A DNA stretch of 64,000 nt, from the sequence record OR352938.1. One strand, written 5' to 3'. The notes beneath the pieces are model-generated. The model was not told where the DNA came from. It searched no databases and worked only from the letters and a program-made list of their open reading frames with translations. Numbering within the stretch: position 1 is the stretch's first letter; each line of letters starts with the position of its first letter. Origin of the DNA: Escherichia phage AV108. Below, piece after piece: positions 24,360-27,234 of this stretch. Both the position numbers and the translations under genes were made by a program.

Positions 24360-24758
24360 TTAATCCAGTCGAGTGAGTTTATAAATTGTTTTAAAGCATA
24401 GAGCTTTGATATCGTCTAAAACGCTCTGTAACGAGCTATCAACATCATTATAAATCTCACTAGCCATTTGCGTTAACTCTTGCAAATAGGCAATTTCGCT
24501 AATCTCCTTGCGGACGACCAACTTTGGCTGATAACGACCAGTGATCCCAATATTGGTTTCAGTGAAATTATCAACCAATTCTTGCATTTCAAGATAGAAC
24601 TCTTCTAGAGCCTTATGTTTTGCATAAGATCCAGGACCAGTTACCCCAAAATGCGCAGAATGCATATAAGTAACACTCATCAGACATTCACCGATAAAGC
24701 GGTCAACTTTATTAGCCTTTCCCTCTTCGGACGTCTTTAGAAAATCACTGAATTTCAT
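24360..24758 (-). CDS. Dps-like mini-ferritin (ferritin-like four-helix-bundle protein, ~133 aa)
   Basis: ORF track 24360..24857; likely start ATG at 24758. AHF-(x11)-H-(x14)-D-(x3)-E has the same spacing as the E. coli Dps ferroxidase ligands H51/H63/D78/E82. Confidence 0.6.
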   Translation of the reverse strand: MKFSDFLKTSEEGKANKVDRFIGECLMSVTYMHSAHFGVTGPGSYAKHKALEEFYLEMQELVDNFTETNIGITGRYQPKLVVRKEISEIAYLQELTQMASEIYNDVDSSLQSVLDDIKALCFKTIYKLTRLD

Positions 24759-25047
24759 GTTCTCGATTCTCCATATTATGCAACAGAACAAATTGTTGTG
24801 CGGCATATCCCCCCATAATAAAACACTGCCTAGAATCCATACATTTACTACGAGCATACATCTTCATAATATGGGCATGAAATTTCTGGCTGGTTTCAAT
24901 GGAAGGAGATATTTTGTTTACATATACTATCATTGCGCCGTCGAAATAATCAGTAAAGTCACCAGTTGGATCATATTGATCAGCACTGACACTTCCGACC
25001 GCAGTCAAGCATATTGCCGCTGTTAGAGTTTTACGAATAAATGACAT
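24745..25047 (-). CDS. exported protein with N-terminal signal peptide (100 aa)
   Basis: MSFIRKTLTAAICLTAVGSVSA-DQ: basic N-region, hydrophobic core, AxA-like cleavage site. Confidence 0.55.
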   Translation of the reverse strand: MSFIRKTLTAAICLTAVGSVSADQYDPTGDFTDYFDGAMIVYVNKISPSIETSQKFHAHIMKMYARSKCMDSRQCFIMGGYAAQQFVLLHNMENREHEIQ

Positions 25048-25080
25048 AAGTCATTCCCCCAGATTGAAAATATTCAGTTA

Positions 25081-25088
25081 TATTTATA
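25081..25088 (-). promoter_or_regulatory. T4-type late promoter motif TATAAATA
   Basis: Plus-strand tatttata, i.e. TATAAATA on minus, ~35 nt upstream of the 25047 start codon in the tk-downstream intergenic region. Confidence 0.4.
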
Positions 25089-25115
25089 ATCCGGGGCTTT
25101 ATTTATGATTAACTC

Positions 25116-25712
25116 TTATTTGGTAGTACCATCAATAAAATGTTTACGACACACAGAAACATATTTATCCTCTGCACCAACTTCTATTTGAGCACCATCG
25201 CGAATAACATTACCATCTTTATCTACGCGAAGGACCATAGTCGCTTTCTTGCCACAATGACAAATACCCTTCATTTCGACCAGTTTATCAGCAAATGCCA
25301 TTAATGCCGCAGATCCTTCAAATAGATTGCCCTGAAAGTCAGTGCGAAGGCCATAGCACAGTACAGGGATATTAGCATCATCAACAAGCGCACACAAGCC
25401 TAAAACATGCTCTTTAGTCATAAATTGGGCTTCATCTACAAATACAGCATCAGGACGCCAGCGATCCGTTCTACGCTTACCTAGTGATTCACGATAAACC
25501 AAGTCGAAAAGATCATCCGATTTAGTGAAGGTGATCGCTGGAGCACTTAGACCAATTCGGGAAACGACTTCACTTTCTGAATCTCGATTATCAATCGCTG
25601 GTTTAAGAATTAATACTCGCATATCACGTTCGGTATAGTTATAAGCACTTTGTAACAGAGAAGTTGATTTGCCAGCGTTCATAGATGCATAGTAGAAATA
25701 TAATTGCGCCAT
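25116..25712 (-). CDS. tk: thymidine kinase
   Basis: 198 aa; YYASMNAGKSTSLLQ P-loop, VFVDEAQF, GLRTDFQG, CHCGKKA zinc motif; colinear with T4 Tk as recalled. Confidence 0.92.
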   Translation of the reverse strand: MAQLYFYYASMNAGKSTSLLQSAYNYTERDMRVLILKPAIDNRDSESEVVSRIGLSAPAITFTKSDDLFDLVYRESLGKRRTDRWRPDAVFVDEAQFMTKEHVLGLCALVDDANIPVLCYGLRTDFQGNLFEGSAALMAFADKLVEMKGICHCGKKATMVLRVDKDGNVIRDGAQIEVGAEDKYVSVCRKHFIDGTTK

Positions 25713-26005
25713 TAATTAATCTCCAAAAATCCAACAAGACCTAAACCGATATAAGTCCAGATACAAAGGAAAAAGAAGCAAACACCCATAGCAAAGATAA
25801 ATCCGCGTAGTGTCTTTGGATAACCTACCCAATATTCCCGACCATCTTCTAACCGGATCAACTTATTGCCTTGCGAGTCCATATCAACTACAACATGTTT
25901 ATTTCGAGATTGCAATAGATATTGTTTTACAATCTCTACACCCGCCATAATAACAATAACGAAAATAAAAGTCCACACAACAAGATTAATGATAGTCTCA
26001 AGCAT
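25712..26005 (-). CDS. small membrane protein (97 aa, two predicted TM helices)
   Basis: Hydrophobic N- and C-terminal segments (LVVWTFIFVIVIMAGV; FIFAMGVCFFFLCIWTYIGLGLVGF). Confidence 0.5.
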   Translation of the reverse strand: MLETIINLVVWTFIFVIVIMAGVEIVKQYLLQSRNKHVVVDMDSQGNKLIRLEDGREYWVGYPKTLRGFIFAMGVCFFFLCIWTYIGLGLVGFLEIN

Positions 26006-26216
26006 TTTCTATCACCTCCACCCAATCAGGTGTTTCCTGAAAGACTCCTTCACCTTCATGATGGTCGCAACCTTTATTGCTGCAATACATCCACCAATCC
26101 CACATTCCCCACGGTAAACGCTGCATATCGTCGTTACAGCAAGTGAAGATAATAGGCCAACCACATCTAACACATCGGCAGTTTTCCTTCATGTGTGCGG
26201 TATTAGGCTTCTTCAT
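25998..26216 (-). CDS. Cys/Trp-rich small protein (~72 aa)
   Basis: ORF track 25998..26240; ATG at 26216 overlaps stop of upstream ORF; CRCVRCGW...TCCND...CSNKGCDHH. Confidence 0.45.
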   Translation of the reverse strand: MKKPNTAHMKENCRCVRCGWPIIFTCCNDDMQRLPWGMWDWWMYCSNKGCDHHEGEGVFQETPDWVEVIENA

Positions 26217-26407
26217 AGATGACTCCAATATAATCGACATTTACATTTAGGGCAATGCGGTTCTTTAATATAATACCCGTCTGTCTTTGGAACACTAACA
26301 GGAGCGGTTTTTATATTGTATTCAGTGAAACAACGAAAACAAGTTACGTTTTCTACAGACTGACGTTTCACCCAATCACCGGAATATAGATCATTTTTAT
26401 TTGTCAT
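26213..26407 (-). CDS. zinc-ribbon protein (~64 aa)
   Basis: ORF track 26213..26443; ATG at 26407; CFRC...CPKCKC. Confidence 0.45.
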   Translation of the reverse strand: MTNKNDLYSGDWVKRQSVENVTCFRCFTEYNIKTAPVSVPKTDGYYIKEPHCPKCKCRLYWSHL

Positions 26408-26852
26408 ATTCAACCACCACAATGTTAATGTCTGGAGTAGCAATATTAATAATCTCTTCTACACACTCCCACTCAAGGCCACCGATACCGCAACCGATTT
26501 TAGGAATATAGAAAGGCTGTATAGCACCCTCAAAAACATCATTGAGAGACTCAAATCCTTTCAGGATAGCACCATATTCAGCATTTGGACCCGGTCGGAA
26601 TTGGGTATAGAGATTCACCCCGCACCAGTTATAACCATTAACTTGATGCGTCCAGATACTAAACCCACCCAGCTTTTCTACCTTACCGCGAGAAGTTTGC
26701 TTGTCAATCTCTAACGCTTGCGGGAACTCTTTCGCGATCTTTGCAGCAATACCAGCACCCATAGTATGAAAACAATTACAACCATGAATTAAATGACCGT
26801 TTCCTTGTTTAAACAGGGCGATGAGATCGCCCTTTACAGTATCAATAATCAT
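26397..26852 (-). CDS. macrodomain protein, TARG1/OARD1/DarG-like (ADP-ribose binding or hydrolase)
   Basis: 151 aa; VKGDLIALFKQGNGHLIHGCNCFHTMGAGIAAKIAKEF and PKIGCGIGGLEWECVEEI match the TARG1-type signatures (VKGDLFA..LAHCIS..MGAGIA..F and PRIGCGLDRLQWENV) as recalled. Confidence 0.75.
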   Translation of the reverse strand: MIIDTVKGDLIALFKQGNGHLIHGCNCFHTMGAGIAAKIAKEFPQALEIDKQTSRGKVEKLGGFSIWTHQVNGYNWCGVNLYTQFRPGPNAEYGAILKGFESLNDVFEGAIQPFYIPKIGCGIGGLEWECVEEIINIATPDINIVVVEYDK

Positions 26853-26867
26853 AATATAAACCTCTCA

Positions 26868-27227
26868 TTAGTCACGGGAAGACAACCCAGCCATAAAACG
26901 GCTTAACAGTGTGTCGCGATAAGCAAAGCATAATTGCTTATCAGGGGCAGTATCACAAAGGTTGCGTTTTGTTTTAGCAAAGCTGGCAATACTCAGATCC
27001 CACGCTCGATTTTTTCGTTTTTCGTCTCGACCTTGTTTGTATGCTTCGTCGAGTTCAAGTGCGATAAAATCACTACACATGTTATCATCATCACAGAAAG
27101 TTTTAATGATCTTTTTGTTGATCTCAAATCCTTTGTATTCGAACTTTGGATAAGGGCGCTCATTACTAGCAAGCGCACCAGCCGAGAACATCATAGCAAT
27201 CATAGCAATTATTGTCAACTTTTTCAT
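26868..27227 (-). CDS. secreted/periplasmic protein with signal peptide (119 aa, 4 Cys)
   Basis: MKKLTIIAMIAMMFSAGALA-SNE signal peptide. Confidence 0.55.
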   Translation of the reverse strand: MKKLTIIAMIAMMFSAGALASNERPYPKFEYKGFEINKKIIKTFCDDDNMCSDFIALELDEAYKQGRDEKRKNRAWDLSIASFAKTKRNLCDTAPDKQLCFAYRDTLLSRFMAGLSSRD

Positions 27228-27234
27228 ATATTCC

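Follow-up and report, generated by a model that had tools for sequence, protein, structure and literature searches.

Escherichia phage AV108 (sequence record OR352938.1) carries, on the minus strand at 26397..26852 of the 64,000-nucleotide (nt) stretch analyzed here (the window), an open reading frame (ORF) of 151 amino acids that encodes a stand-alone macrodomain and corresponds to tk.4 of phage T4. When a library of T4 transposon mutants was screened by HIDEN-SEQ on a host carrying DarTG2, tk.4 was the sole significant hit, and a clean T4 tk.4 knockout was sensitised to DarTG2 (bioRxiv 10.1101/2025.11.20.689424). The same work, posted in November 2025, renamed the gene adfM (anti-DarT factor Macrodomain) and pointed out a similarity to the DarG structure of Mycobacterium tuberculosis. 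Removal of adenosine diphosphate (ADP)-ribose by T4 AdfM was described by its authors only as something that "seems likely", and the accessible text holds no comment on the catalytic residue of this protein. The name AdfM was independently given to gp104 of phage PhiKZ, which in vitro takes off the ADP-ribose that DarT2 installs on DNA; its putative active site consists of N23 and K78, and the activity of an N23A variant was reduced (Cell Rep 2026, PMC13309987).

Among the cellular macrodomains, SCO6735 of Streptomyces coelicolor (PDB 5E3B) carries Gln85 where the catalytic lysine would be and lacks equivalents of TARG1 Lys84/Asp125 and DarG Lys80 (PMC9411070). This protein reverses DarT-installed thymidine ADP-ribosylation both in vitro and in cells, with a turnover higher than that of DarG or TARG1. 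The Q85A and Q85E mutants were inactive and N27S was nearly so, and a mutant of the corresponding Asn of DarG was also impaired; in the model proposed there, the Gln places the distal ribose and an activated water starts catalysis (PMC9411070). Robust activity of SCO6735 on synthetic ADP-ribosylated thymidine (T-ADPr) and uridine (U-ADPr) substrates was observed in later work, and T-ADPr DNA is also cleaved by TARG1. A "mobile loop", five residues longer than its counterpart in TARG1 and DarG, was said to typify the subclass formed by SCO6735 and BT1257 (PMC9411070).

Orthology with T4 tk.4 and placement among macrodomains

The AV108 ORF extends from ATG to TAA (the coordinates include the stop codon), and its translation, MIIDTVKGDLIALFKQGNGHLIHGCNCFHTMGAGIA...PKIGCGIGGLEWE..., contains all the motifs quoted in an initial annotation made from the DNA letters. 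It is the Krischvirus (RB49/JSE-group) ortholog of T4 tk.4/adfM, because the two proteins are homologous over their full length (43.8% identity, 99% coverage, E = 2e-34) and the order regB, vs.1, vs, tk.4, small ORFs, tk and rI is identical in T4. The proteins are similar in size (151 and 155 residues), both genes lie between vs and tk, and H-G-C-N, N-L-Y-T-Q and a G-x-G-I-G loop are found in both. They differ in that T4 is a Tequatrovirus and AV108 groups with Krischvirus, with 56% of the residues unlike. The 4-kb stretch around tk.4 shares 98-99% identity with Krischvirus phages, including JSE, MIZ4, RB49 and others (58 records), and the window is collinear with JSE, whose matching gene is annotated as "tk.4, phosphatase; contains A1pp phosphatase motif". 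A profile match to PHROG 335 ("phosphatase") was also obtained with E = 1.5e-62. Homologs were detected by tblastn in 2,735 of 50,697 phage records, whose hosts include Escherichia, Klebsiella, Salmonella, Pseudomonas, Vibrio, Acinetobacter and Aeromonas. The initial annotation had named, as a finding that would speak against it, a hydrolase widely conserved in T4-like phages with known function; this is largely the case, since the protein occurs widely in T4-like phages and a function is now known.

The protein matched the Pfam Macro family (PF01661) over the whole profile (positions 1-118 of 118), scoring 29.9 bits where the gathering cutoff is 22. An AlphaFold2 model built from 82 sequences gave a predicted local distance difference test score (pLDDT) of 97.3 and a predicted template modeling score (pTM) of 0.91, and exhibited the three-layer alpha/beta/alpha macro fold with Gly-rich ADP-ribose-binding loops. 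Human TARG1 was the best Foldseek match (E = 6.5e-11, template modeling score 0.76-0.82, 27-29% identity), and the nearest structural relatives of the model were DarG, TARG1, Poa1p and BT1257, the last of which stands for the SCO6735 cluster. When the family profile was compared using hhalign, scores of 86.1, 84.8, 83.5 and 67.3 were obtained for SCO6735, DarG of M. tuberculosis, TARG1 and PhiKZ gp104, respectively. The closest neighbors by both structure and sequence thus belong to the ALC1-like class, and not to the MacroD, PARG or viral X-domain types. The Tk.4 family is its own clade within this ALC1-like (TARG1/DarG/SCO6735/Poa1p) macrodomain class, which bears out the assignment to the TARG1/DarG class made in the initial annotation, with the Lys/Asp dyad of TARG1 lacking.

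Identity with DarG and with TARG1 was examined and rejected. The protein differs from DarG (Thermus aquaticus, 5M31/5M3E; M. tuberculosis, 5M3I) in that the catalytic Lys80 of the aligned "PTKK" motif is replaced by Gln84, and in that the C-terminal DarT-binding domain is missing. It covers only positions 2-141 of the 338-position NCBIfam DarG equivalog, where its score of 49.5 bits falls far short of the cutoff (250), and positions 3-141 of 329 in the PADLOC DarG model. There is no darT neighbor; the gene is flanked by vs and a small zinc-binding ORF, and the JSE annotation lists no ADP-ribosyltransferase (ART) in the collinear 50 kb. These four features (a match to the macro half only, the low NCBIfam score, the missing Lys and the absence of a neighboring darT) exclude DarG itself. 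The protein shares with TARG1/OARD1 (PDB 4J5R/4J5S) the loop length after the lysine slot and the VKGDL, MGAGIA and PRIGCG...W motifs. It differs in carrying Gln84 and Gly124 in place of Lys84 and Asp125, and Asn26 where TARG1 has a Ser, so that TARG1 was likewise excluded by the absent catalytic dyad.

Active-site residues and their conservation

The active-site slots were assigned by phmmer, MAFFT and hhalign, and the three methods were concordant. T83-K84 of TARG1 and the "PTK" motif of DarG align with T83-Q84 of the NLYTQF stretch, and thus the slot occupied by TARG1 Lys84, DarG Lys80 and SCO6735 Gln85 holds Gln84 (CAA codon at 26601..26603, minus strand). It had been proposed that His69 of SIWTHQ (codon at 26646..26648, minus strand) stands opposite TARG1 Lys84, which is not upheld by any of the three alignments. 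His69 lies in a variable stretch, on the model strand 64-71, which directly precedes the strand ending at Gln84. Only 18 of 121 family members have His at this position, where Thr, Ile and Val are about equally common or commoner. This residue was hence excluded as the equivalent of the catalytic lysine. The second assignment, Gly at the TARG1 Asp125 position, was reproduced by all three methods as Gly124 (codon at 26481..26483, minus strand), which is located within the phosphate-binding loop P117-K-I-G-C-G-I-G-G-L-E-W128. Both canonical residues are therefore gone, as had been stated, with Gln and not His in the lysine slot. An alignment to a fragment of SCO6735 placed H24-V-C-N27 and Q85 of that protein on H23-G-C-N26 and Q84 of the AV108 protein, of which the His23-Gly24-Cys25-Asn26 codons lie at 26775..26786 (minus strand).

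Conservation was evaluated on a 120-sequence alignment comprising the query and 119 homologs retrieved from a search of 5.8 billion proteins. Gln84 is kept in 118 of the 120 members (98%), Asn26, Gly24, Asn80 and Tyr82 in all 120, and His23 in 116. The Asp125 slot is filled by Ala (60/120) or Gly (59/120) and never by Asp; it is Gly in DarG and Ala in SCO6735. The T4 protein reads NLYTQFQPGPN at the slot, and eight homologs at 30-41% identity, each from a different phage lineage (Pakpunavirus, Felixounavirus, Kuttervirus, Demerecviridae, a Klebsiella jumbo phage, Certrevirus, Schizotequatrovirus and Tulanevirus), all retain the Gln, the Asn and the Ala/Gly. As Gln84 is almost invariant and the same residues occur in T4 Tk.4 and these eight lineages, the missing Lys and Asp are a family-wide signature and not the decay of one gene, nor a peculiarity of the AV108 gene. 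The retention of Q84, N26, G24, N80 and Y82 points to purifying selection on the active site.

Two sequences depart from Gln84. One of them, P0020, is a singleton on a 1,430-bp contig and has NLYTK, whereas NLYTQ is found in P0021, to which it is closely related; the Lys reflects either a natural change from Gln or an error in sequencing, and the pair is consistent with Gln and Lys sharing one slot. The other, P0017, is a truncated, 140-residue metagenomic chimera in which the first ~82 residues are those of Tk.4 (to ...NLYV) and the remainder is the C-terminus of the NrdC.11/RlaP-like protein (REELKDLYERVK...DFWKDLLE...); it may have arisen by rearrangement or be an artefact of assembly.

The two phage proteins that bear the name AdfM can be compared on the same residues. 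PhiKZ gp104 is likewise a phage stand-alone macrodomain acting against DarTG2 and has the conserved Asn (N23), and translation of its published sequence gave FPTKDNW, indicating a Lys-type, DarG2-like site. Of the references compared, it lies farthest from the Tk.4 family (hhalign 67.3 against 84-86), and it is imported into the phage nucleus, a structure that T4-like phages do not build. Because of the Gln versus Lys in the key slot and the lowest hhalign score of gp104, the Gln-type T4 Tk.4 and the Lys-type gp104 are non-orthologous proteins from different clades of the same class. This contrast finds no mention in the accessible portions of the AdfM literature.

Favored function and its alternatives

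Quite probably, the protein counters DarT2 as a catalytically active DNA ADP-ribosylglycohydrolase whose chemistry does not depend on a lysine. From the computed fold, class, orthology, synteny and active-site identity and conservation, we infer its catalytic activity, DarT2-modified DNA as the substrate, and a mechanism of the SCO6735 type. During infection, host DarT2 would ADP-ribosylate the N3 of thymidine in phage single-stranded DNA (ssDNA) at TNTC motifs and thereby block replication. The macrodomain would then bind the ADP-ribose between its Gly-rich loops, G32-A-G34 and G120-x-G122-x-G-G125, and hydrolyze the N-glycosidic bond between ribose and thymine, so that the DNA is restored. 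This chemistry would proceed with neither the Lys/Asp dyad of TARG1 nor the Lys of DarG; Gln84, held by the invariant Asn26, may position the distal ribose or the transition state for reaction with an activated water, as proposed for SCO6735. The role against DarT2 is suggested by orthology to T4 tk.4 together with the DarTG2 phenotype, which has been demonstrated for T4 only and by genetics only. The idea that a phage macrodomain reverses DarT-type DNA ADP-ribosylation, already put forward in the initial annotation, thus gains support from the screen and knockout of the ortholog (bioRxiv 10.1101/2025.11.20.689424). A Gln-type site is plausible as an active one because of the SCO6735 precedent, in which Gln is an essential residue of a highly active thymidine-ADPr hydrolase (PMC9411070), and the earlier suggestion that the absent residues might mean inactivity loses its ground. 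The Gln in the Lys slot and the conserved Asn are common to SCO6735, BT1257 and the AV108 protein (Gln85/Asn27 corresponding to Q84/N26). The identity is only 22-24%, however, and SCO6735 and BT1257 (PDB 2FG1/2AFC) are cellular, not phage, proteins.

Several points weigh against hydrolysis of DarT2-modified DNA by this protein. No enzymology of any Tk.4-clade member was found in the literature searched, and the function is carried from T4 to another genus across 44% identity. The Tk.4 clade also lacks three features of SCO6735 that are linked to its activity on DNA. The segment from Gln84 to Tyr93 contains 8 residues, as in TARG1, versus 13 in SCO6735 and 14 in BT1257. The DNA-positioning Lys34 and Lys89 of SCO6735 correspond to Ala33 (Ala in 108/120) and Gly88 (Gly in 113/120), and its Val25 corresponds to Gly24 in the Tk.4 clade. 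The macrodomain of ALC1 acts as a binder and is not known to be a hydrolase. ALC1 homologues have the conserved Gln as well (PMC9411070), and for that reason this residue is by itself no proof of catalysis. Moreover, the dead Q85A mutant of SCO6735 still inhibits DarT strongly by interaction (PMC9411070), so that protection without hydrolysis would be possible in principle.

Strict membership in the SCO6735 subclass was excluded by the short loop and the lack of Lys34/Lys89 equivalents. Judged from the aligned residues, the protein is only partly SCO6735-like, sharing the Gln/Asn/His core but not the long loop and the lysines. Longer loops are present in some distant phage homologs.

Three other functions were considered alongside the DNA ADP-ribosylglycohydrolase. 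In the first, the protein is an active eraser but acts mainly on something other than DarT2-modified DNA, such as U-linked or ribose-linked ADP-ribose on RNA, protein ADP-ribosylation by other host toxins, or the modifications made by phage ARTs of the Alt/ModA/ModB type, which it would tune. U-ADPr on RNA is cleaved by both SCO6735 and TARG1, SCO6735 also removes protein mono-ADP-ribosylation, and the presence of the family in 2,735 of 50,697 phage records infecting many hosts might suggest a wider role than the evasion of one defense system. However, tk.4 was the sole significant T4 hit under DarTG2 selection, and no phenotype with other systems is reported in the accessible text of that preprint. 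Such activity fits the DarT2-countering reading as an addition without replacing it, and we consider it more plausible as an additional function than as the main one, for which it is unlikely.

The second is a non-catalytic binder that would bind DarT2, shield ADP-ribosylated or target ssDNA, or soak up Thoeris signals of the glyco-cyclic ADP-ribose (gcADPR) type, with the Gln kept for binding as in ALC1. The absent Lys/Asp dyad, the Gln conserved in ALC1 homologues and the inhibition of DarT by dead SCO6735 Q85A are all compatible with this, and a survey argued from contextual evidence that small ADPr derivatives are the main targets of phage macro domains (PMC9503650). Nevertheless, the residues that SCO6735 needs for catalysis (Gln, Asn and the Gly loops) are the most conserved of the family, and the invariant Asn was described as conserved in nearly all enzymatically active macrodomains (PMC9411070). 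Those of the closest structural relatives that have been characterized act as hydrolases or phosphatases, and the C-terminal domain with which DarG binds DarT is absent. No evidence ties the family to Thoeris, and the gcADPR sponge proposed in the initial annotation found no positive support. We therefore regard a pure binder as quite improbable. The same low likelihood applies to its extension to the entire Tk.4/AdfM clade as a stoichiometric "sponge or inhibitor" class of anti-defense proteins, which would clamp DarT2 or ADP-ribosylated ssDNA or sequester ADP-ribose-derived signals; stoichiometric protection of this kind is conceivable because Gln replaces Lys and because both the long loop and the DNA-positioning lysines of SCO6735 are missing. 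A milder variant, which is more likely than the sponge, is that the clade is active through a third, lysine-independent layout (Gln plus a short loop) with a wider range of substrates comprising T-ADPr DNA and U-ADPr RNA.

The third, a yeast Poa1p-like ADP-ribose-1''-phosphate phosphatase or O-acetyl-ADP-ribose deacetylase that would clear by-products of RNA repair or nicotinamide adenine dinucleotide (NAD) metabolism, is very unlikely: although the H-x-C-N-C...G-G-G-I-A motif is shared with Poa1p, Poa1p is a top structural match, RNA-repair-type genes are near (nrdC.11 of the RlaP family, and an RNA ligase annotated in the same gene array of JSE) and GenBank and PHROG carry the label "phosphatase / A1pp motif", this label goes back to "A1pp", a former name of the domain, and not to an assay (in JSE and T4, the notes state only "contains A1pp phosphatase motif"), the phenotype of the T4 ortholog is DarTG2-specific, Poa1p was aligned by HMMER only over query residues 15-75 and 110-140, leaving the middle with the Gln slot unaligned, and the annotation of the 50 kb examined lists no Tpt1/KptA-type enzyme that would generate Appr>p.

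Gene neighborhood and meaning of the family

The gene is located in a minus-strand array of non-structural genes with the order regB, vs.1, vs, tk.4, three small ORFs, tk and rI. A Shine-Dalgarno-like GAGAGG at 26861..26866 (minus strand), read from the sequence, lies 8 nt upstream of the tk.4 ATG, and the vs stop codon (26868-26870) is directly upstream of this GAGAGG. The first small ORF downstream (26213..26407, minus strand) encodes a Pfam Phage zinc binding domain (PF23903, E = 1e-23), and its ATG at 26405-26407, located from the sequence and the JSE annotation, overlaps the final tk.4 codons. The tk.4 gene and this zinc-binding ORF are thus tightly packed, and may be translationally coupled. 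As the ribosome-binding site, the vs stop and the overlapping ATG all abut, tk.4 is a normally packed gene of the long minus-strand array. The second small ORF downstream (25998-26240, minus strand) encodes another Phage zinc binding domain (PF23895, E = 6e-34).

The N-terminus of the vs product (26868-27227, minus strand) is signal-peptide-like by eye. The same is true of Vs.1 (27235-27825, minus strand), whose N-terminus (MLKVLKAIVLSLSLAVGATHA) lies upstream of an SLT lytic-transglycosylase domain (PF01464, E = 8e-6, above the cutoff), and of rI (24745-25047), which matches Pfam Antiholin. With tk in the array, the setting of secreted proteins and tk described in the initial annotation was roughly right. 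A few genes upstream of tk.4, nrdC.11 (29193-29891, minus strand) matches the nucleotidyltransferase family RlaP ("RNA repair pathway DNA polymerase beta family"; PF10127, E = 3e-14) and adjoins a homing endonuclease ORF at 29910-30503. A different context was observed in Vibrio phage Cody (Demerecviridae; MT460515.1, 105560-106908), where the macrodomain homolog directly follows a ribose-phosphate pyrophosphokinase gene in a locus that resembles nucleotide/NAD metabolism, unlike the T4-like one.

A promoter/terminator scan of 24800-30600 was of little informative value, with 28 promoter-like sites compared with 19.2±3.8 expected. The best sigma-70-like site of the region, at 27218..27190 on the minus strand, matches 11/12 positions (TTGACA, a 17-nt spacer and TATGAT, with a TG) and falls within the first vs codons (KLTIIAMIAMM). 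This match is probably a coding coincidence, though tk.4 could be transcribed from there.

The AV108 gene is largely explained as the ortholog of a recently named anti-defense gene, with residues that are normal for its large phage family. As for annotation, the genes of this family, which the records examined label "phosphatase", "hypothetical protein" or "macro domain protein", are better interpreted as orthologs of T4 adfM that encode anti-DarT2 macrodomains. Caution is also advised against calling a macrodomain "inactive" on the ground that it lacks the dyad of TARG1. The T4-type AdfM clade, which is far more widespread, does without the lysine that defines DarG/TARG1 chemistry. If its members are active, phages would have broadly taken up a lysine-independent mechanism of the SCO6735 type in a more compact form, which would bear on how the N-glycosidic bond between ADP-ribose and thymine is cleaved and on the design of inhibitors for DarG-like enzymes.

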